Below, piece by piece: positions 11,444 through 49,179 of a stretch of DNA of 64,000 nt. The translations under genes and the position numbers were made by a program. Source of the DNA: Escherichia phage OLB35; sequence record MH992122.1, one strand, 5' to 3'. How positions within the stretch are numbered: position 1 is the stretch's first letter; each line of letters starts with the position of its first letter. The notes under the pieces are model-generated. The model was given only the letters and a program-made list of their open reading frames with translations, was not told the origin of the DNA and made no database searches.

Positions 11444-12049
11444 TTAATTTAGTTTTAGTTTTCCAGTCAGAGCCTTTAAAAGAAGAACGTTGAGTTTAGT
11501 AAGTTCATGTCCTTCCGCTTGATGTGAGCCGTTAATGCGTGCTTTCAAAGCAACAATTCTAAGTTTAGATTCGTTAGATAAAGGTTGATTTTTCATCATG
11601 TTCGCCATATGCTTAACACGATTTTCACGTTTTGCTCGGATTTTTAAAATAGTACCATAAACCTTTTTGATTTGGGCCCATTTCTTCTCGTCGAGATTAA
11701 GTTTCTCTACTTTACGGGCAGAAGGATTAGCGATACGTCTTGCAATGGCATCACGTTTCTCAATAAGTTCTTCTAATGTTAAATCAGAACGAGCCGTGTT
11801 ATATTTTTTCTTAACTGGGATAACATTACCTTTAATGTAGCCGATATTGTTATCAAAACGTTCTAAGGATAATTTCTCACCTTCAACAGAGTTATTGAAA
11901 GATTCACCTGAGTAAGCGCAGACCTTTTGATCAAGAATGTTTTTAAGGTAGTTAAAGTCTAAGTTAAAATCCTTAGAGCGTCTCTTCGCAGAAGCTCTGG
12001 TGTGGTCAAGACGACGATTTATTTTGTTAATTTTATTATTTGATAACAT
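11444..12049 (-). CDS. hypothetical protein in srd position
   Basis: 201-aa ORF between dda.1 and modA-like gene; own early promoter upstream; identity with T4 Srd not verified. Confidence 0.45.
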   Translation of the reverse strand: MLSNNKINKINRRLDHTRASAKRRSKDFNLDFNYLKNILDQKVCAYSGESFNNSVEGEKLSLERFDNNIGYIKGNVIPVKKKYNTARSDLTLEELIEKRDAIARRIANPSARKVEKLNLDEKKWAQIKKVYGTILKIRAKRENRVKHMANMMKNQPLSNESKLRIVALKARINGSHQAEGHELTKLNVLLLKALTGKLKLN

Positions 12050-19920: not shown

Positions 19921-20034
19921 ACACAGTATGTGGGGCTTGTAAACAGTTATTTTAAAATTATCGAAAATCTGCTTCGAAAACTTTCTCGTCATTAACAAAT
20001 GCTTTAACTAATGCTTTGTTCACTTCAGCAAGAT
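19921..20034. repeat. direct repeat copy 1 (orphan dmd 3' end + early promoter)
   Basis: about 114 bp, near-identical to 20069-20185; contains GTTTAC early-promoter -35. Confidence 0.85.
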
Positions 20035-20068: not shown

Positions 20069-20185
20069 ACACAGTAGTATGTGGGGCTTGTAAACAGTTA
20101 TTTTAAAATTATCGAAAATCTGCTTCGAAAACTTTCTCGTCATTAACAAATGCTTTAACTAATGCTTTGTTCACTTCAGCAAGAT
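20069..20185. repeat. direct repeat copy 2 (genuine dmd 3' end + early promoter)
   Basis: second copy, separated from copy 1 by a 34-bp unique spacer. Confidence 0.85.
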
Positions 20186-29933: not shown

Positions 29934-30194
29934 GTTGTGGTCCTCATTGGTAAGTAGGTGTATTGTACACTATTCTAGTTAAAGCATTCATACTTTGCTT
30001 GTAGTCCAATCATAATCCATCCGATTATAAGAGTCGGAATCATTACTGGAGCCGTTAAGCTCCAGTAGATAGTCATGACAAGCATCAATAGTAAAAGTCC
30101 TATTGTTATTGCTTTCATTGCTCGCCTCGTAACATGGCACCTAGTGCACCACCAGGGTGGAACTTAAGGAAGATCATTAGAGGTAAATCCACGT

Positions 30195-30753
30195 TCAGAT
30201 GAAAGGTTGATAGCGAACGTATCGATAAGCGCTAACAACAATGTAGTGGACATGGTCGGAGCTAAAGAGATTCTCGTCGACCTCTACCGCGATGCCTGTA
30301 CAGAAAGAGTAATCAAAAAGGGCTTCATTTTCTTGCGGAATGTCCGGGTTACAATGCAACAGAATCTGTTTAACCTGAGGACGAATCATACGAAGATGTT
30401 TAGCAACACCTATCATTTCTTCGGTCTTACCAGAACGACTAATATGAATCAACACATCATTAGGCGCAATGAATCCTGCATCACCATGAGAATAATGCCC
30501 GGTGTTCAAATACATGCTAGGAATACCCAATGAAGCAAAATGTCTCGGAAGCTTTAGTTGCGATATTAGCGTTCTTACCGACACCTGTAATAATTACACG
30601 ACTTTCATAATTGCTCAGTCCTGGGCGACGAAGAGTTTCAAGAATAGCATTATATCGGGCAGGGTTTTTACTAATTACTTTAGCCATAGTAGCCAAAGAA
30701 GAAGCTTGTTTTACGATTGCGTCAATAGCGATAGTGATTGGTGTAGTTTTCAT
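30195..30753 (-). CDS. SIS-domain sugar-phosphate isomerase (GmhA/KdsD-like), frame broken at a homopolymer
   Basis: ORFs 30517-30753 (...ITGVGKNANIATKASETF) and 30195-30584 (...ASLGIPS...HGDAGFIAPNDVLIHISRSGKTEE) join into one SIS domain if one T is removed from the run at 30537-30540. Confidence 0.65.
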
Positions 30754-30793
30754 ATTTCTCTCATTTAATTAGTTTACCGTCCATGGCATTATA

Positions 30794-33531
30794 TCAAAAA
30801 TCAAACATATCGAACAGAGATGCTTTCTTCTCGTAATCGAGTTTAGCTGCTGTTGTGAATCCTTCAAGTGGTTTAATAAATGTCTTCTCAAGGAGAACAG
30901 TATAGTCCATCCAATGAAGTACATCATCTTTGATTAAATCGGTGATTTCCGTACCAGAAGGCCATGCGATACATTTATCACCGAACGGGTTTCCATCACG
31001 TAAAGGCAGAACATATACTTTTTCACCTTCTACAACTTGTGGAGCATCAATATTACCTTTGATAGCTCGGTTATATGTCAGAATTCCACGAATATGGAAC
31101 GGACATTTAGGACCAGGGAATCCACCAACGTCATATTTAGCAATGTTATTCGCAGAAGATACCGCCGCGATGCTAATATAATTCAATTGACGGAATTCTT
31201 TTTCAAACTCTTTAAAATATTCTTGTAATGATTCTTCACCTTCTTGAAGCATACGACGAATACATTCTTTAAGAGCTTTCTGTACTGCTTTAGGGGTCGA
31301 AGATTTCTGAGTCTCTAGACCCATGATTTTGAGTTTAGGCTCAGCGTATCTGGTTCCTTCCATATCCCACACGTTTAATGCATAACGTTTCTTACCAGTC
31401 CAGAATCCACCAATACCTTTAGAACCGAGCGGAGGACCAGCGATAGCTTCTCGGTCCATGAACATTAAGTGTTGTTTATTGTTCATGTATTCGCACATTT
31501 CACGGAAACCTCTATCAATAGCCGGTTCCATACGTTCACGTGCAAACTTATCTAAGAAGTCTACCCAATGGTTGGTATCACGGAATTTAGATTCACCGAC
31601 CTTATCAATAATTTTATCAGCAGATACGTAAATAGAGTCTGTATCACCGTAAAGAACGAAAGCTTCACCTTCTGTACCACAAACTTCGTTCAGATATTCA
31701 TTAACTTTACGTTCAATCCACTGTAAAGCCATTTGCCCAAATGTTGTGATTGCAGTAGCATTACGCAAATCATAATAACGGAACCAAACGTTGCCAAGTG
31801 CACCATAAAGCGAGTTGATGAGCAATTTACGGTTAATTTGTGCAGTCATACCTGCAACTTCAGTACGTTGAGCTCTAAACAACATTTCATTAAGAGATTT
31901 AGCAGACAACTTTTTAATCTTTTCTTTAATCTCATCGCTGAAGTCGAAACGATAATCAACATCTAATGGTTCGTCAACAGAAAGATTAGGATTATGTAAG
32001 GCTTCTTTAATTATTTCACCATTACGTTGAGCTGCAAGCATGTAACCTTTATGTTCTTTACGTTGATTAAAGACCTTAGTGATTTCAGTTGGAACTACAC
32101 CATCACGGTCTTTATAATACATCATGCCGTTAGGAGAGCAACTGTACACATCTGAAGGACGTTCAGCGATTGCGTTAATATAATCATGCAATGGAGCTAC
32201 TTTAAACGTTCCTGCTATTGTTTCTGGGCTAATATTCACTTGGCGAATAATACTTGGATACAGAGATGTAAGGTCGAAACTCATTACATATTTGTATCGA
32301 TTTGGAATAGGTTCCTTAACAAAAGCGCCAGGATAAGGTTGAACCTGGTGAGAACGACCTTGTGGAATCACCTTGTTCTGCTCTTTAAGGCTATTAAAAA
32401 TAATAACATCCCATGTTTTAATTGGGCTAAACACAGATTGAATCTGTATCTTAGCATAATAACCCATGTCCAAACTCAAGTTTATGAACTGGCGTTTAGC
32501 ATCAATTTGCAATACACGATACACGTCGATAATGTTATAAGAAATATATCGTTGGTGATTACTTTCACGAAGTTTAGAAATAGGACCGTCATATTTCAGT
32601 TTACCGACATTCAATTCAAATTCTGAAATGTAATCCAGAGAATACGACGGTTGGTTTGTGAAAGAGAATTTTTTGTAAAGGTCGATATAATCAAGAACAG
32701 AGATACCGAACAATGTAATGATTTCACGAGAACCGTACATGTTTTCAATAACTTTAACACGAGTCTTGCGATACTGCAAAAACCTAGATCATTGTCGGGT
32801 GGTGATAAACGTTTCGCAGTAGATTCGCCAAAAATATTCTTGATTCGGTTATACACATATGGAATATCAAATGACTCAACGTTCCATCCAGTCAAAATGA
32901 CAGGAGTTTTCTGTTGCCAGAAGTTGAGATATTCCATCAACAATTCTTTTTCGTTATCAAACGGCATATAAATGATTTTATCAATAATTTCGGATGGAAC
33001 TTCATCACCACCTTGTTCTTGAAGCTTAGCAGCGATTTCAATAGACCATTCTTCTACATTACCATATGGAGAATTCAATAGATCAAATACGTAGAACCTG
33101 TCGTCAATTGAGTCATAATGGGTGATAGCATCAATCGGATGTTTTGCTTGTGACGGCTCAGGGAACCCATCCGGAGATGTTACTTCGATGTCGAAGTTAG
33201 CCACACGAATTTTTGTATGGTCGTATTTGATTTCATAGTTATAAGTGTCAGACAAATACGCCAATTTGAAATCGTCCATACCTAATGCTTCAAGACCAAT
33301 ATCTTCCATGCGTTTAATCCATTGGGAGGCATCACGCATATTAGCGAACAACTTACGAGTACACGGCTTACCGTAGATATCGAAATATTTAGTAGCCTGA
33401 CTTTCTGGACAATGAGCAAACAATGATGGTTTATATTCTACTTCACGAGTACGTTCACGGCCATTAGAATCGATGTAACGTTCAAAAATTGAATCACCAA
33501 TCTGTTCAACCGTTAAGTAAAATTCTTTCAT
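30794..33531 (-). CDS. 43: DNA polymerase gp43 (family B), two overlapping frames
   Basis: ORF 32611-33531 (MKEFYLTVEQIGDSIFERYIDSNGRERTREVEY..., RB69-type N-terminus) and ORF 30794-32779 (...NMYGSREIITLFGISVLDY...YGDTDS...); frame break near 32771-32799. Confidence 0.9.
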
Positions 33532-43321: not shown

Positions 43322-43615
43322 TCAACTGTAACGATAACATTCGTTAGCTTTACGTTTGGCTTCAGTATGAGAAGTATTATAATCATACTCTTCTTTACTG
43401 TAAACATCTTTTTTCAACTTACGAACTTCTTTGCGGAGTTGTTGATTCATTTCATTCTTGACTTCAGAATCAACGCCTTTCATACGTTTCCATTTATCTG
43501 AGCGGAAAATGTTTTCAACCATGTCTTTGTGGCTAACACCGTCAGGAGCTTTACGTTTACCAAAATAGTCATAATCGCGAACTTTCAAATCTTTACGACG
43601 ATACGTTTTACCCAT
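43322..43615 (-). CDS. hypothetical basic protein
   Basis: 97-aa Lys/Arg-rich ORF. Confidence 0.45.
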   Translation of the reverse strand: MGKTYRRKDLKVRDYDYFGKRKAPDGVSHKDMVENIFRSDKWKRMKGVDSEVKNEMNQQLRKEVRKLKKDVYSKEEYDYNTSHTEAKRKANECYRYS

Positions 43616-43622
43616 AAGTACC

Positions 43623-43871
43623 TCAGAGGTTGATTGATACGATGCGTTTGATAAAATTCACTTCACTTACTGAAAGGTTTTTAAGACCGATTGATTCTAA
43701 ACGCTGAGTAAGCGTCAACATTGGGATATAGTCCCAATGAGTTTTATATGCTTGATAAGTACGAACGCCATTAGCAATTTCAACATGCAAATCAGAAATG
43801 GTAACGAATACCGGATGCTCGTCATTAACTCTAAGTGTTAGAACAACCTTCTTTGAATCTAAACTAATCAT
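43623..43871 (-). CDS. hypothetical protein
   Basis: 82-aa ORF. Confidence 0.45.
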   Translation of the reverse strand: MISLDSKKVVLTLRVNDEHPVFVTISDLHVEIANGVRTYQAYKTHWDYIPMLTLTQRLESIGLKNLSVSEVNFIKRIVSINL

Positions 43872-44170
43872 AGTTTAATTTCCTTCGCAATTGAACAGAA
43901 GATACTACGGTCACAAAGCATTTCACCAATTTCTGGATATTTGATTGAACGGTACCAAACATCCAGGCTTGAAACTCTGGTTATCTGTACGGCATTACCG
44001 TTGACAGAATAGTACTGGTCAACCTTAATTTCTTTATCTTCAATTGTCATTTTGTTTTCCTCTATAGCAGATGGTTTAATCTTAACATAACTATCGAGGA
44101 TGTAAACTGTTTTATGAAAATATTTTTGATTTGAGAGGGGCACAAGGAGATAGTGAAGTGAAGATTCCAA
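43868..44170 (-). CDS. hypothetical protein
   Basis: 100-aa ORF. Confidence 0.45.
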   Translation of the reverse strand: MESSLHYLLVPLSNQKYFHKTVYILDSYVKIKPSAIEENKMTIEDKEIKVDQYYSVNGNAVQITRVSSLDVWYRSIKYPEIGEMLCDRSIFCSIAKEIKL

Positions 44171-44215
44171 TGGATTATATTAGAAATAAGATAAAGAAGA
44201 CCAGGCGGCACCTGG

Positions 44216-44539
44216 TCAATCTTCTATGATATCAGAGTCGTATCCTAATGAAATCAAGGACTTTTTAAACTCTGCAATATTCTTTTGTTTCTTATCATTT
44301 AAAAATATGACAGGATAACGAATATTAAGTGAAGTGAATCCTGCACGTTTAGCAAGAGATACGATTAAAGAACGGTCGTATTCGATCTTACCATTATTAG
44401 TGAGGACTTTATAAAATGTATAAGGAACATTGAGCTCCTTTAAAAGTTTTATAACAGTATAACATCCTGGACAACGTCCTACTTCTTCAGGGATACCATA
44501 AATTTCAATCTTGTTCTTTAAGTTCGAGTTTTGTTCCAC
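44216..44539 (-). CDS. nrdH: glutaredoxin-like protein NrdH
   Basis: ORF 44216-44668 trimmed to GTG at 44537-44539; ...IEIYGIPEEVGRCPGCYTVIKLL... CPGC redox motif; upstream of nrdG. Confidence 0.5.
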   Translation of the reverse strand: MEQNSNLKNKIEIYGIPEEVGRCPGCYTVIKLLKELNVPYTFYKVLTNNGKIEYDRSLIVSLAKRAGFTSLNIRYPVIFLNDKKQKNIAEFKKSLISLGYDSDIIED

Positions 44540-44822
44540 GAGAAATAATTCCTTGGTAAGCCCAATAAGGAGGATTAACAGAATCCTCGCCAGAGTTTTC
44601 TTCAGGAAAATAAACCTGGATAACAAATCCAGATGCATCAAAGGTAAAATAAACCGTAGGCAGTTCACCTAACAATTCGGCACGAGCATTAATTTCTTCG
44701 AGATCTCGTTCACGTCCAGCCCAAAAACTAGGATTTAGATTACATTCGTAAAAATAATAGTCATTACCGAACATATCAAACCCCTTCCAACTCTCTACCA
44801 CGTACCGCTCAAAACTAATCAT
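44505..44822 (-). CDS. hypothetical protein
   Basis: 105-aa ORF. Confidence 0.45.
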   Translation of the reverse strand: MISFERYVVESWKGFDMFGNDYYFYECNLNPSFWAGRERDLEEINARAELLGELPTVYFTFDASGFVIQVYFPEENSGEDSVNPPYWAYQGIISRGTKLELKEQD

Positions 44823-44824
44823 AA

Positions 44825-45040
44825 TTAAGCCTTTTTATCAAGAACAGAATTCAGTTTGTTAGTAATTTTATCCAGACGCTCATTGAACTCATTAGAAGAT
44901 AAGCCCTTTTCTGGAGAAATTAAACTAATCACGAAAAATACACCAGTAAAAGGAATAAGAAAAATAGCTCCAACTGCCATAAACAAAAAGAACGTTACAG
45001 TTGTAAGAAAATCAGCTAAACCTTTACGAAATTTATACAT
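44825..45040 (-). CDS. hypothetical membrane protein
   Basis: 71-aa ORF with hydrophobic segment. Confidence 0.4.
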   Translation of the reverse strand: MYKFRKGLADFLTTVTFFLFMAVGAIFLIPFTGVFFVISLISPEKGLSSNEFNERLDKITNKLNSVLDKKA

Positions 45041-45154
45041 ATTTACCCTTAATTAATTAACCAAGCATTGATAAGCACTAAACCATATTGCGAATAAAAT
45101 TCTGGACCAAAATGAAAAATCATATCATTTATAGTATCCATAATGTAATTCAAT

Positions 45155-45625
45155 TTAATCATGTTTCCACACCCCATCGGTATTTGACCAAAGTCGCTGA
45201 TTATCTGATCCTCGCCACAGCTTTTTGGTCGGAAGATTTTTCTCATACTTCCCATCAATAATAACATCAACATATTTAAGCATTTCTAGCTGTTTAATAT
45301 CTTCAAACTTATATCCTGTCCACAACCAAATGCTTTTATTGGGATAAAAATTTTTTACTGTTTGAACAATGCAATGAATAACATCTCGATTGTCAGGATA
45401 GAGAGGGTCTCCTCCAGATATAGTTAATCCTTCTATATAATCATTATTCAAACATTCAATTAATTGTTCTAGTGTTTCACCAGTGAATGGAATACCATTT
45501 CTAGCATTCCATGTTGATTTATTATAACACCCTTCGCATTTATGCAAACACCCTGTAACGAAAAGAACAGTCCTGCAGCCCGGGCCATTCACAAAATCGC
45601 AAGGATAAAATCTATCATAATTCAT
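45155..45625 (-). CDS. nrdG: anaerobic ribonucleotide reductase activating protein NrdG (radical SAM)
   Basis: 156 aa; CxxxCxxC-type cluster ...GCLHKCEGCYN...; matches T4 NrdG. Confidence 0.9.
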   Translation of the reverse strand: MNYDRFYPCDFVNGPGCRTVLFVTGCLHKCEGCYNKSTWNARNGIPFTGETLEQLIECLNNDYIEGLTISGGDPLYPDNRDVIHCIVQTVKNFYPNKSIWLWTGYKFEDIKQLEMLKYVDVIIDGKYEKNLPTKKLWRGSDNQRLWSNTDGVWKHD

Positions 45626-47439
45626 TGGTGTTTAACCCTATGCATGATTTCTTTATTTTTACCGAGATTAAATCCGCGTTCGTTCGGATTTCCCAAATAA
45701 CCGCATGTCCTTCTTATAGTGTTCATCTTTTTAGGATCAGTTTCTCCACAAACTGAACAAACAAATCCGTTTTCAGTAGGAGTCATTTCATGAGTACTTC
45801 CGCATGTAAAACATTTATCCACTGGCATATTAACACCAAAATAATCTAAATGTTGTGCAGCATAATCCCAGACAGCCTCAAGACCCTTTAAATTGTTTTT
45901 CATATCTGGAAGTTCAACATAAGAAATGTGACCACCTGTCGCAATGAAATGATATGGGGCTTCGCGAGAAATCTTTTCAAACGGAGTGATATTTTCTTCT
46001 ACTGAAACATGGAAACTGTTAGTGTACCAGCCTTTATCAGTAACATCTTTTACACTTCCATATTTTTCAGTATCAAGTTTACAGAAGCGATAACAAAGGT
46101 TTTCAGCAGGAGTAGAATATAAGCTAAAAGCAAATCCAGTTCTTTCAGTCCACTGTTTAAGATGAGCATTCATTTTAGTTAAAATTTCTTGTCCAATATC
46201 ACGACCAACAAGAATATTCAATTCATGAATACCAATGTATCCTAAAGACACTGAACTTCTACCGTTTTTAAATAACTCAATTATATCGTCATCAGGTTTA
46301 AGACGAACCCCGAATGCACCTTCTTGGTAAAGAATAGGAGCAACAGTAGCTTTAACTCCTTTTAAGGAACCAATTCTACACATCAAGGCTTCAAAGCACA
46401 GATCCATTCGTTCATTGAATAATTCAACAAATTTCTGTTCATTGAACTGTGTTCCAATATAAGAATCTAATGCGATACGAGGAAGATTCAGTGTTACAAC
46501 ACCAAGATTATTGCGACCATCAAGAATTTCATTACCAGTCGAATCTTTCCATACGCTCAAGAAACTACGACAACCCATTGGAGAAACTGGAACTGAAGAA
46601 CCAGTAATAGCTTTATTATTCTTAACCGAAATAATGTCAGGATACATTCTTTTGCTTGCACATTCTAACGCAAGTTGTTTAATATCATAGTTTGGATCAT
46701 CTTTATAAAGATTAACACCTTCTTCAACAAACATAACAAGTTTAGGAAAAATAGGAGTTATTCCATCACGACCGAGACCTTTAATACGATTTTTCAGAAT
46801 TGCTTTCTGAATCATTCGTTCAGTCCAATCAGTTCCAGTACCAAATGTAATTGTTACAAAAGGCGTTTGTCCGTTTGAACTAAAGAGAGTATTTACTTCA
46901 TATTCATAAGCTTGGAATGCGTCATAGACATCTTTTTCTGTTTTGGATTGAGCATAATTCAGAATGTCCGGTATTTGCCATTTTTCTGCATCTTCAACAT
47001 GTTTAGCGTATGTACGTTTAACATAAGGAGAAAGTACTTTATCGACATTCGCAAATGTAGTTCCGCCATACTGATGTGAAGCAACTTGTGCAGTAATTTG
47101 TGCCATAATTGCAGTAGCAACACCAATCGATTTAGGCGTTTCAATTTGAGCATTGCCTAATTTAAATCCGTTCTCAAGCATTCCTTTTAAATCTACTAAA
47201 CAACAATTAGTAAATGGCAATGATATACTGTAATCTAAATCATGAAAATGAATTAACCCGGCATTATGAGCATTTACAATATGGCTTGGAAGAATACTAC
47301 AAGCGATATGTTTAGAAACAATACCGGCCATTAAATCTCTTTTTGTTGGAAAGACACGAGAATCTTTGTTGGCGTTTTCGGTATTTAATTCTTTATCTTT
47401 ATTTGAAATAAAATATAATAGTTTATATACTACATTCAT
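45622..47439 (-). CDS. nrdD: anaerobic ribonucleoside-triphosphate reductase NrdD (uninterrupted, no intron)
   Basis: 605-aa continuous ORF; C-terminal ...RRTCGYLGNPNERGFNLGK... glycyl-radical region as in T4 NrdD. Confidence 0.95.
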   Translation of the reverse strand: MNVVYKLLYFISNKDKELNTENANKDSRVFPTKRDLMAGIVSKHIACSILPSHIVNAHNAGLIHFHDLDYSISLPFTNCCLVDLKGMLENGFKLGNAQIETPKSIGVATAIMAQITAQVASHQYGGTTFANVDKVLSPYVKRTYAKHVEDAEKWQIPDILNYAQSKTEKDVYDAFQAYEYEVNTLFSSNGQTPFVTITFGTGTDWTERMIQKAILKNRIKGLGRDGITPIFPKLVMFVEEGVNLYKDDPNYDIKQLALECASKRMYPDIISVKNNKAITGSSVPVSPMGCRSFLSVWKDSTGNEILDGRNNLGVVTLNLPRIALDSYIGTQFNEQKFVELFNERMDLCFEALMCRIGSLKGVKATVAPILYQEGAFGVRLKPDDDIIELFKNGRSSVSLGYIGIHELNILVGRDIGQEILTKMNAHLKQWTERTGFAFSLYSTPAENLCYRFCKLDTEKYGSVKDVTDKGWYTNSFHVSVEENITPFEKISREAPYHFIATGGHISYVELPDMKNNLKGLEAVWDYAAQHLDYFGVNMPVDKCFTCGSTHEMTPTENGFVCSVCGETDPKKMNTIRRTCGYLGNPNERGFNLGKNKEIMHRVKHQ

Positions 47440-47909
47440 TTTAAACTCTTTCTAAGCTGCTTTTTGAATGAAGCTATTAATTGTGTTTTAGTATCAGATT
47501 CATTATATTCAAATCCTCTTTGAAGCATCTCAGTCATCATTTCCTCTTTACCTAGTCTTGAGAACTCTTTAGTTTTGTCTGGAACAAAATTAGGATGGAT
47601 ATTATTATCAGAATAATCTTGTTTCAAATAAACAAGAAGAGCTTCAAGCCATTCGAGGTAGTCGACATCACGACCTTTAAGACCAGAACGGTTGAACTTA
47701 TGCTTCATTTGACCTTCTGCTGCATTGCACAGGTTACATAGTAAACCACGAACCTTACCAGCTTTTGGCCCGTTTAATTCATGGTCGTGGTCAAGATGGT
47801 TACCTTGAACATCAGGGTCTAATTCACGGTGGCAAATAGGACACTTACCGTTCTGTGCATCATAAAATTTTTGTTTTTCTTCTTTATATTTTGCGCCTGA
47901 TAATAACAT
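47436..47909 (-). CDS. 49: endonuclease VII (Holliday junction resolvase) gp49
   Basis: 157-aa ORF MLLSGAKYKEEKQKFYDAQNGKCPIC... near-identical to T4 endo VII. Confidence 0.95.
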   Translation of the reverse strand: MLLSGAKYKEEKQKFYDAQNGKCPICHRELDPDVQGNHLDHDHELNGPKAGKVRGLLCNLCNAAEGQMKHKFNRSGLKGRDVDYLEWLEALLVYLKQDYSDNNIHPNFVPDKTKEFSRLGKEEMMTEMLQRGFEYNESDTKTQLIASFKKQLRKSLK

Positions 47910-47938
47910 GATAAACCCTTACCTTAAATAGATAAGGG

Positions 47939-47946
47939 TATTTATA
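47939..47946 (-). promoter_or_regulatory. late promoter TATAAATA upstream of gene 49, next to an RBS-sequestering hairpin
   Basis: plus tatttata at 47939-47946; hairpin ccctta (47916-47921)/taaggg (47933-47938) overlaps the SD of gene 49. Confidence 0.55.
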
Positions 47947-48247
47947 ATTTAGTAAATGTTATAAAAGTTACGATGAGAACGTTTAGCTTTGCGAAGCTGA
48001 CGTTTAGTAGGACGAACTGTAAATGGTTGTCCAGAGAAAAAATTCGGATCGGTTTTAATAAGCAAATACCAATCACGCTTGCCATTTTTTAATAAACGGT
48101 ACAATAATTTAACTTGCATAATAATCTCTTCCCATTTCCATATCGATTAATTCATTTATTGAAGGTTCATCATAACATGGTTCTTCGTCGTTGTAATCTG
48201 TTTCGACGTCTGGCTCGACAGTCTCCCATCGAGCAGAATACCACGGT

Positions 48248-48604
48248 TTAACCCCGGAGTTTATTGAGCTCTTCATAATCAATCCAGGATTCTAGCCCTG
48301 ACGGCAGGTCACATTCAATGTTCCACAGAAGCTCTTCAATGGCTTGCAGGCGATTATATTCTTCAACGGTAATGGTAACCATTGGTGCAACCGGTTCTGC
48401 CTTTTTAACCATCATGTCGTTCATCAGGACGTAAAGGTCATCACGAACGACAGTGTCGTTCCATCCCCATGATTTGGCTTCGTAAGCTAATGATGAAGGG
48501 AGCACATTTAAAACTTCAATAATAGTTGGAGCATCAGGACCAAGTTCATTGGCACAAACTTCGTATACATCCTGGAAATCTTTAAGATTTAATGAATATG
48601 TCAT
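48248..48604 (-). CDS. hypothetical acidic protein
   Basis: 118-aa ORF. Confidence 0.5.
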   Translation of the reverse strand: MTYSLNLKDFQDVYEVCANELGPDAPTIIEVLNVLPSSLAYEAKSWGWNDTVVRDDLYVLMNDMMVKKAEPVAPMVTITVEEYNRLQAIEELLWNIECDLPSGLESWIDYEELNKLRG

Positions 48605-48622
48605 TTAAAATTTTCTCGCAGG

Positions 48623-48919
48623 TTATTGTTCTACCCATGAACAAGAGACTTCAAAATCAGGACCACCGTATTCCCAGTGATATTCACCAACAGGAATCCA
48701 GTCACCGTGCTCGTTTTCTTCATAGTCCTCAGGCTCAAGGCCAACGAATCGCCATTGGACACCGATGATTCGATTACCCATCATTACTCGAAATTCGCCC
48801 CATGGATTATCGATAGCATACTGAATATCGTTCTTGGCACGAGAGCACATTTCTTGATATAATAAAGCTTCTAATTCACCCTGGTCATAAGGGCCAGGGA
48901 AAGTTAAATCAATACTCAT
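48623..48919 (-). CDS. hypothetical protein
   Basis: 98-aa ORF. Confidence 0.5.
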   Translation of the reverse strand: MSIDLTFPGPYDQGELEALLYQEMCSRAKNDIQYAIDNPWGEFRVMMGNRIIGVQWRFVGLEPEDYEENEHGDWIPVGEYHWEYGGPDFEVSCSWVEQ

Positions 48920-49179
48920 TTAAAATATTCTCGTAGTTGGTCAAATCCACCAATGTGACTTCCGTCAGGAGCAAACACTTGAGGCATAGTCAATCCAACT
49001 TGTGATTCACGTCCAAGCTTAACCAGAAGCTCAGCAATTTTCTCATCGTCGAACACACCTTTTTCCGGCATAACATTAATGAATTCGAATGGCTGTTTCT
49101 TAACAGTCAGCAATCGTTTCGCATTATCACAATAAATGCATTTATGAATAGTAGAGTCATACCCGTACACTTTAAACAT
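48916..49179 (-). CDS. nrdC: thioredoxin/glutaredoxin NrdC
   Basis: ORF trimmed to ATG at 49177-49179 (MFKVYGYDSTIHKCIYCDNAKRLL...), 87 aa as in T4. Confidence 0.9.
   Translation of the reverse strand: MFKVYGYDSTIHKCIYCDNAKRLLTVKKQPFEFINVMPEKGVFDDEKIAELLVKLGRESQVGLTMPQVFAPDGSHIGGFDQLREYFK

Follow-up and report, generated by a model that had tools for sequence, protein, structure and literature searches.

Does an uninterrupted nrdD gene in a T4-like phage mean that mobile DNA never reached the locus, or that it came and went? In phage T4, nrdD carries a group I intron. In the 64,000-nucleotide stretch of Escherichia phage OLB35 (MH992122.1) analyzed here, called the window below, an earlier note made from the sequence alone had described NrdD as one continuous 605-amino-acid ORF, had seen no intron-like insert in any gene, and had found this consistent with an intron-poor, RB69-like lineage. 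Our overall reading, in which we have high confidence, is that the window holds intact, intron-free nrdD and nrdG genes of an RB69-like Mosigvirus and that the 5′ end of nrdD is the scar of a deleted homing endonuclease gene (HEG), with the HEG-linked allele of nrdD retained beside it.

The gene itself gives little reason for doubt. The continuous ORF is borne out by its coordinates (Table 1) and by a match to the full length of its family; residues 21 to 604 correspond to positions 1 to 562 of the Pfam NRDD profile (PF13597; 570 bits), and a C-terminal Gly_radical domain is recognized at 90 bits. The T4 NrdD structure (1H78) matches the protein at 1,329 bits. C79, C290 (in the motif PMGCRSF), and the zinc-site cysteines C543, C546, C561, and C564 are all kept, as is the glycyl-radical site, G580 in T4 numbering, which lies within RTCGYLG. 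Judged by its sequence, nrdD in the window encodes a full-length class III ribonucleotide reductase in which all the catalytic residues are present. The N-terminal 205 amino acids, used as a query for protein homology, returned only shorter NrdD entries (up to about 360 amino acids), most of them distant.

Table 1. Features of the nrdD locus, with positions in the window and the basis of each assignment
Feature	Position	Strand	Basis
nrdG, radical-SAM activase	45155..45625	-	Pfam Fer4_12 (163 bits) and Radical_SAM; 4-nt overlap with nrdD stop
nrdD, class III ribonucleoside-triphosphate reductase large subunit	45622..47439	-	Single uninterrupted 605-codon ORF (ORF list)
Empty T4-type nrdD group I intron insertion site (coding nt 538/539); predicted unoccupied I-TevII homing site	46902/46901	-	T4 boundaries mapped
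Near-invariant block after the tract boundary, nrdD nt 223-270, PFTNCCLVDLKGMLEN; predicted SegG-like recognition/cleavage region	47170..47217	-	Nine-allele alignment
HEG-linked nrdD allele (putative co-conversion tract), nrdD nt 22-222	47218..47418	-	Diagnostic positions in eight alleles
Apparent relic of a SegG-like GIY-YIG HEG start, now the nrdD start; nrdD nt 1-21, ATGAATGTAGTATATAAACTA, encoding MNVVYKL	47419..47439	-	Junction sequences
Gene 49, endonuclease VII	47436..47909	-	Pfam Endonuclease_7 and its dimerization domain; stop overlaps nrdD start by 4 nt (ATGA)

That T4 nrdD is split is confirmed by its record, a two-piece join of 2,851 nucleotides containing I-TevII, with mobC lying between nrdD and nrdG. 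Trying all split points placed the 1,033-nucleotide T4 intron after coding nucleotide 538. Alignment with the spliced T4 exons, which the earlier note had proposed as a check, ran without a gap and gave 568 identical amino acids out of 605. At the nucleotide 538 site, the alignment is gap free not only with spliced T4 but also with RB69, T2H, and T6. Around this site, the sequence of the window is indistinguishable from that of intron-free T2H between −19 and +45 and from those of T6 and RB69 between −2 and +45. At the downstream end of the gene, nucleotides 1741 to 1818 match RB69 without a mismatch, and the nrdD/nrdG junction of the window lacks the mobC/segH-type HEG that is present there in T4, T6, and fPS-2.

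Two candidate features of the intron site were considered and rejected. Six synonymous differences separate the window from T4 at +8 to +20 downstream of the site, and a homing site altered specifically in Mosigvirus could be envisioned; the same bases are found in T6 and T2H, and on these alignments the differences separate intron-minus from intron-plus alleles rather than genera. The second candidate was a co-conversion footprint at the intron site, where blastn identity appears to jump from 79% to 94%, together with another footprint at the mobC site. A binned comparison showed that the jump is apparent only, because the T4 intron splits the blastn alignment; divergence in nrdD is limited to nucleotides 1 to 240, and RB69 is about 94% identical to T4 throughout. 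From its flanks, the site is a natural empty site, and a footprint of past occupancy is absent. The literature searched yielded no I-TevII cleavage coordinates. The sequence at the site is that of an unoccupied homing site, which we predict to be susceptible to I-TevII. T2 was reportedly the recipient of the nrdD intron in the T4 × T2 crosses of Quirk et al. in 1989. The intron is probably missing for lack of invasion and not through a changed target.

An unnoticed self-splicing element, which the earlier note had named as the finding that would undo its reading, was searched for with working positive controls, and none was detected. Rfam found no group I intron in the entire 64-kb window at gathering thresholds and no group I match there in permissive mode (E ≤ 10). 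The T4 nrdD intron served as one control (Intron_gpI, RF00028; 105 bits), and the variant intron of phage JK45, described below, as another. Because gathering mode overlooked the JK45 intron, which permissive mode recovered at 70.6 bits, positions 43500 to 49000, a stretch matched in shortness to the JK45 control, were scanned again permissively, and again no group I intron was found. Searches of the window by blastn and nhmmer with the T4 and JK45 introns gave only noise, as did tblastn with mobC, T4 SegG, the SegG-like HEG discussed below, and the HEG between nrdD and nrdG of fPS-2; tblastn with I-TevII of T4 and JK45 gave a single noise match (E = 0.7). The statement that no gene of the window contains an intron-like insert holds as far as introns go; it overlooked a 26-nucleotide insertion in gene 43, which is not intron-like and to which we return. 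The failure of the fast filters of Rfam on JK45 in gathering mode does mean that such negatives can be filter dependent, and a self-splicing or otherwise structured element in or near nrdD could in principle have slipped through. We consider this barely credible, given that the ORF is continuous and has, gap free, the length of spliced T4 and RB69 nrdD, that the very mode that recovers the JK45 intron is negative for the window, and that no insert longer than about 350 nucleotides relative to RB69 exists anywhere in the window.

How ordinary is an intron-free nrdD in this lineage? The RB69-like placement stood up well. At 95 to 98% identity, the window follows RB69 collinearly from position 1 to about 63.4 kb; none of the segments specific to the window exceeds about 350 nucleotides, and these contain small ORFan genes between conserved genes. 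The nearest relatives are Mosigvirus genomes, with CCU7 98.3 to 98.6% identical across most of the window. RB69 has been published as having neither introns nor HEGs (PMC1524935; PMC2993671, Table 5), and T4 is the outlier in this respect (PMC1524935, PMC2993671, PMC2988022). In the phage collection, the T4 nrdD intron is present over 80% or more of its length in 69 of about 917 records matching the nrdD region (about 7%), 25 of them at 99% identity or more and about 44 with a variant of 66% identity. An intronless nrdD is the majority, and already documented, state in T4-like phages and is normal for RB69-like ones.

The idea of an intron-poor lineage needs qualifying, since absence of the intron is not genus-wide. 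JK45 has a 1,045-nucleotide variant intron with an I-TevII-like ORF exactly at nrdD nucleotide 538, and its gene 49 and nrdG are 96% identical to those of the window, compared with 78 to 82% to those of T4, so that its flanks are of the Mosigvirus type. SHSML-52-1, which ICTV places in Mosigvirus, likewise has a split nrdD, in which a sequence 66% identical to the T4 intron covers 96% of its length. Because these two phages carry the variant intron, the locus is polymorphic.

A variant intron at this very site in relatives with Mosigvirus-type flanks also raises the idea that the lineage of the window once had the intron and lost it precisely, rather than never having been invaded; loss of a mobile element is, after all, evident elsewhere at this nrdD locus in the form of the HEG scar. 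Against this, each intron variant comes with its own exon 2 signature, one shared by the intron-bearing T4 and fPS-2 and another found in JK45. The window has neither; it has the intron-minus sequence, identical from −2 to +45 to that of T2H, T6, and RB69, and shows no footprint of earlier occupancy. We therefore regard precise intron loss as improbable and hold to a site that was never invaded.

The 5′ end of nrdD is a different matter. The closest relatives of the 3-kb stretch spanning gene 49 and nrdD match it in two pieces, and between the two genes they carry an 822-nucleotide gene for a 273-amino-acid "homing endonuclease." The gene 49/nrdD junction of the window is the position at which these relatives hold it. 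This gene is present in 62 related records, at the gene 49/nrdD junction in every record inspected. Residues 1 to 125 of its product match positions 1 to 123 of the PHROG 7504 profile (homing endonuclease; 1e-33); the protein also contains NUMOD3 motifs, and it shares 40% identity with the N-terminal domain of T4 SegG. In the window, tblastn found no full-length SegG-like HEG, and no ORF with GIY-YIG and NUMOD3 was found; codons 1 to 7 alone remain. Nucleotides 1 to 21 of the window nrdD are identical to the first 21 to 22 nucleotides of the HEG in phages 348Ecol098PP, JK42, and phage 55. From nucleotide 22 on, the sequence is that of nrdD in the HEG-bearing relatives, save for one base in codon 9, at which the window departs from all four HEG-bearing relatives compared; this mismatch leaves the junction less than fully accounted for.

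We read the MNVVYKL-encoding start of nrdD, from these junction sequences, as the leftover of the start of a SegG-like HEG. The direction from HEG to nrdD follows because the MN-VYK start is conserved in members of the SegG family that are unlinked to nrdD and because the HEG-bearing relatives keep a native NrdD start. The N-terminal pattern MN-VYK...PYYYIGS is found in T4, where the gene lies beside gene 32, and in Proteus and Pseudomonas phages, where it lies inside uvsX. M1, V4, Y5, and F9 are invariant in the alignment of T4 SegG with the Proteus and Pseudomonas phage HEGs, and none of these genes is linked to nrdD. In the HEG-bearing relatives, NrdD begins MSLEKDVLNF, which is homologous to MKIEKEIEGL of RB69 and to the start of T4 NrdD. 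One could turn the argument around and suppose that MNVVYKL is the original NrdD start and was captured by an endonuclease gene inserting in the relatives, all the more as both arrangements have an ATG at the same position over the gene 49 stop. The conservation of the motif in T4, Proteus, and Pseudomonas phages away from nrdD speaks against such a capture, as do the native NrdD starts of the HEG-bearing relatives and the fact that the alignment of T4 NrdD with the window protein starts no earlier than residue 10. We consider this reversed order of events highly improbable.

With the start of nrdD taken as a relic of the HEG, one can envision an ancestor, or a recombination donor, with the gene order 49-HEG-nrdD. 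The simplest event would be an illegitimate deletion of 812 nucleotides, from HEG nucleotide 22 (codon 8) through nrdD nucleotide 21 (codon 7). Such a deletion would have joined the HEG start codon and the ribosome site coupled to gene 49 in frame to nrdD and left intact the ATGA shared with the stop of gene 49. The resulting NrdD would be of unchanged length, with MNVVYKL replacing a poorly conserved native N terminus, and initiation at the relic start would yield a protein with the N-terminal peptide (M)NVVYKLLYFISNK. Losses of free-standing HEGs are thought to be constrained, given that these genes overlap host genes and expression signals. In the window, one imprecise HEG deletion was apparently tolerated, because nrdD adopted the start of the endonuclease gene. 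In this respect the in-frame scar looks like a new, small instance of a known process, HEG loss.

The sequence just downstream of the relic bears on what the HEG brought with it. We compared four HEG-bearing alleles (348Ecol098PP, JK42, phage 55, and fPS-2) with four lacking the HEG (CCU7, RB69, T4, and T6) and found 67 fixed differences between the groups, all of them inside nrdD nucleotides 4 to 222. The window is in the HEG-bearing state at 62 of these 67 diagnostic positions; the five exceptions (nucleotides 4, 7, 18, 19, and 25) fall in the relic stub and at one adjoining base. All four HEG-bearing phages compared, which span two genera, have the allele at nucleotides 22 to 222, and all four without the HEG lack it. 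Beyond nucleotide 222, the window nrdD follows its own backbone, closest to CCU7. The tract recurs in phage fPS-2, a Tequatrovirus, where it ends at the same point and gives way to T4-like sequence; fPS-2 additionally carries the T4-type nrdD intron and, between nrdD and nrdG, a third HEG. Because a second genus has both tract and end point, the HEG moves between genera together with about 220 bp of nrdD. Intronless homing with co-conversion predicts just such joint movement of an HEG and its flank (PMC2988022).

The position at which the tract ends suggests where the enzyme may act. The block immediately beyond it, nrdD nucleotides 223 to 270, is our predicted recognition or cut region for the SegG-like enzyme, and the divergent flank may protect HEG-bearing genomes from cleavage. 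The window phage would then have shed the endonuclease and kept the linked, presumably cleavage-resistant, allele. Loss of the endonuclease with retention of the allele would match the loss stage of the homing endonuclease life cycle.

Whether the scar arose in nature is the least secure part of this account. No record of the phage collection contains the scar junction contiguously, no exact match to it was found in IMG/VR or the JGI metagenomes, and the exact NrdD protein of the window is not on record. Moreover, comparison with CCU7, CAU_ECP01, and RB69 revealed several private lesions elsewhere in the window. A frame-breaking 26-nucleotide insertion (32773 to 32798) follows codon 244 of the DNA polymerase gene, gene 43, and is shared by none of 167 related records. 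The arabinose-5-phosphate isomerase gene has three separate +1 insertions (30173, 30269, and 30541), srd has a +2 insertion at 11478, and a 151-nucleotide tandem duplication is found at dmd. None of the private lesions lies within a homopolymer run. For the gene 43 insert, we found neither a second copy nor IMG/VR matches in support of programmed bypass; RNA structure there was not significant (z = −0.7), and neither matched take-off and landing codons nor a slippery heptamer was found, that is, no recoding signal. Such lesions suggest either errors in the sequence or a genome that is defective, and in practice the frame-breaking ones call for caution over the quality of the source genome, or its viability.

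Could the chimeric 5′ end of nrdD belong to the same set, as an artefact of assembly or consensus calling or as a laboratory deletion, spontaneous or engineered? Several of the private lesions, such as 26 nucleotides in an essential DNA polymerase gene, are hard to square with a viable phage, and the junction occurs in no other sequence searched. The structure of the scar argues otherwise. The deletion end points have no usable common k-mer (microhomology of at most 1 to 2 nucleotides), which makes a jump in graph assembly unlikely. The fusion is in frame, leaves the length of nrdD exactly as it was, and preserves translational coupling to gene 49, all of which selection explains better than error. 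Finally, the mosaic of an HEG-linked allele up to nucleotide 222 followed by CCU7-like backbone is typical of natural recombination. We consider an artificial origin unlikely, though it is the alternative that we take most seriously. We lean, with some reserve, toward an in-frame scar left in nature by the loss of a free-standing HEG; nrdD would then initiate on the HEG start and its first seven codons and a co-converted allele of about 200 bp would make the phage immune to re-invasion. We hold our confidence in this natural origin at that level because the private lesions elsewhere cast doubt on the quality of the sequence.

If this reading is right, the window would let the "loss with resistance" stage of the homing endonuclease cycle be observed directly in a lytic phage, and nrdD nucleotides 223 to 270 would be indicated as the target of the endonuclease. 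The tract end point shared by two genera would give a testable prediction of where the SegG-like enzyme cuts. The intron-free nrdD is in itself ordinary; the scar is a detail of modest value for the study of selfish genetic elements.

Set beside known systems, the window is closest in layout to RB69 (NC_004928, RB69p085), whose nrdD is likewise an uninterrupted 1,818 nucleotides in the order 49-nrdD-nrdG with 4-nucleotide overlaps at both ends and is 95% identical over nucleotides 539 to 1818. Nucleotides 1 to 240, in contrast, are only about 60 to 65% identical, and RB69 has the native start and the HEG-minus allele in place of the HEG-derived start and HEG-linked allele of the window. T4 nrdD (sunY) encodes an orthologous enzyme of equal length after splicing, with the same catalytic residues; it differs in having both the intron with I-TevII after nucleotide 538 and mobC before nrdG. 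The Mosigviruses 348Ecol098PP, JK42, and phage 55, as well as fPS-2, share with the window the 3′ end of gene 49, the position of the ATG, and the allele at nucleotides 22 to 222 (0 to 5 mismatches per 60 nucleotides), but these phages have a complete 822-nucleotide HEG followed by an nrdD with its native MSLEKDVLNF start, whereas in the window HEG codons 1 to 7 are fused to nrdD codon 8. Perhaps the nearest precedent in kind is I-TevIII of the T4 nrdB intron, a degenerate form that arose naturally by deletion from the RB3 version (PMC1865063, PMC2988022). There, too, an HEG in a T-even nrd gene has been eroded by deletion while the host gene still functions. In T4 nrdB, however, the remnant is an inactive ORF within an intron that splices, whereas in the window a free-standing HEG is nearly gone and its start codon appears to have been taken over by the host gene.

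Within gene 43, which encodes the DNA polymerase, there is a private 26-nt insertion (see the table), where private means relative to CCU7, CAU_ECP01, and RB69. It breaks the polymerase ORF after codon 244, leaving overlapping frames of 306 aa and 664 aa. The insertion was found in 0 of 167 related phage records, had no match in IMG/VR, and occurs only once in the window. We looked for a slippery site or matched hop codons at this position and found neither; no significant RNA structure was seen there. The insertion reflects either an error or a defective genome, or else it is unexplained.

Frame-disrupting changes, again private relative to the same three phages, were also seen in the arabinose-5-phosphate isomerase gene, part of the RB69-type DNA arabinosylation cluster. 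Three single-base insertions, none of them in a homopolymer, in combination cut this gene from 211 aa to a 106-aa ORF. Similarly, a 2-nt insertion shortens the srd ORF to 201 aa, compared to 248 aa in RB69. At dmd, a tandem duplication covers the 3′ portion of the gene, and one of two nearby 5-nt insertions (CTAAA on the coding strand) coincides precisely with the overlapping stop and start codons that precede dmd.

Positions in the window of indels, gene content differences, and regions compared to T4
Feature	Window position	Strand	Location or counterpart
2-nt insertion, private	11478		in srd
Perfect 110-nt direct repeat, 151-nt spacing (tandem duplication)	19925-20034 and 20076-20185		dmd
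Two 5-nt insertions, private	20234, 20304		near dmd duplication
Single-base insertions A, G, T	30173, 30269, 30541		arabinose-5-phosphate isomerase gene (~30180-30820)
26-nt insertion, private, CCGACAATGATCTAGGTTTTTGCAGT	32773-32798	-	inside gene 43 (~30794-33531)
55.8 homologue	44831-45040
nrdD nt 253-1818	45622-47187	-
Missing pin region	~48015		RB69 47836-48386
241-nt stretch specific to window versus RB69	61618-61858

Gene content differs as well. The region with pin, encoding a Lon protease inhibitor, is present in RB69, JK42, phage 55, and T4, whereas the window and CCU7 are without it. The window also has a 241-nt stretch not found in RB69; on the minus strand, this stretch lacks ORFs of 35 aa or longer, and nothing in it matched Rfam.

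Mobile elements were encountered in several other phages. In Yersinia phage fPS-2, three of them flank or interrupt nrdD: a SegG-like homing endonuclease gene (HEG), the I-TevII intron, and, between nrdD and nrdG, a 245-aa HEG. The last 78 nt of fPS-2 nrdD (nt 1741-1818) have 30-31 differences from each of the four alleles compared (window, 348Ecol098PP, T4, and RB69); this makes it another divergent patch linked to a HEG, in addition to the one at the opposite end of the gene. Shigella phage JK45 is listed under Tequatrovirus, yet it is Mosigvirus-like at the nrdD locus and gene 43; its gene 49 and nrdG have 96% identity to the window, versus 78-82% to T4. Its nrdD intron variant scores 70.6 bits in Rfam permissive mode and is missed by the gathering-mode filters. 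In Proteus phage Pm5461 and Pseudomonas phage PspYZU05, SegG-family endonuclease genes lie between two annotated pieces of uvsX, a RecA-like gene.

At fourfold-degenerate sites, nrdD nt 253-1818 has an identity to T4 of 0.77, and the 55.8 homologue one of 0.96. Since these values exceed those of twelve other genes (only 0.41-0.59), they suggest that nrdD and 55.8 were exchanged relatively recently between the Tequatrovirus and Mosigvirus lineages. For RB69 nrdD, the corresponding identity to T4 is 0.84.
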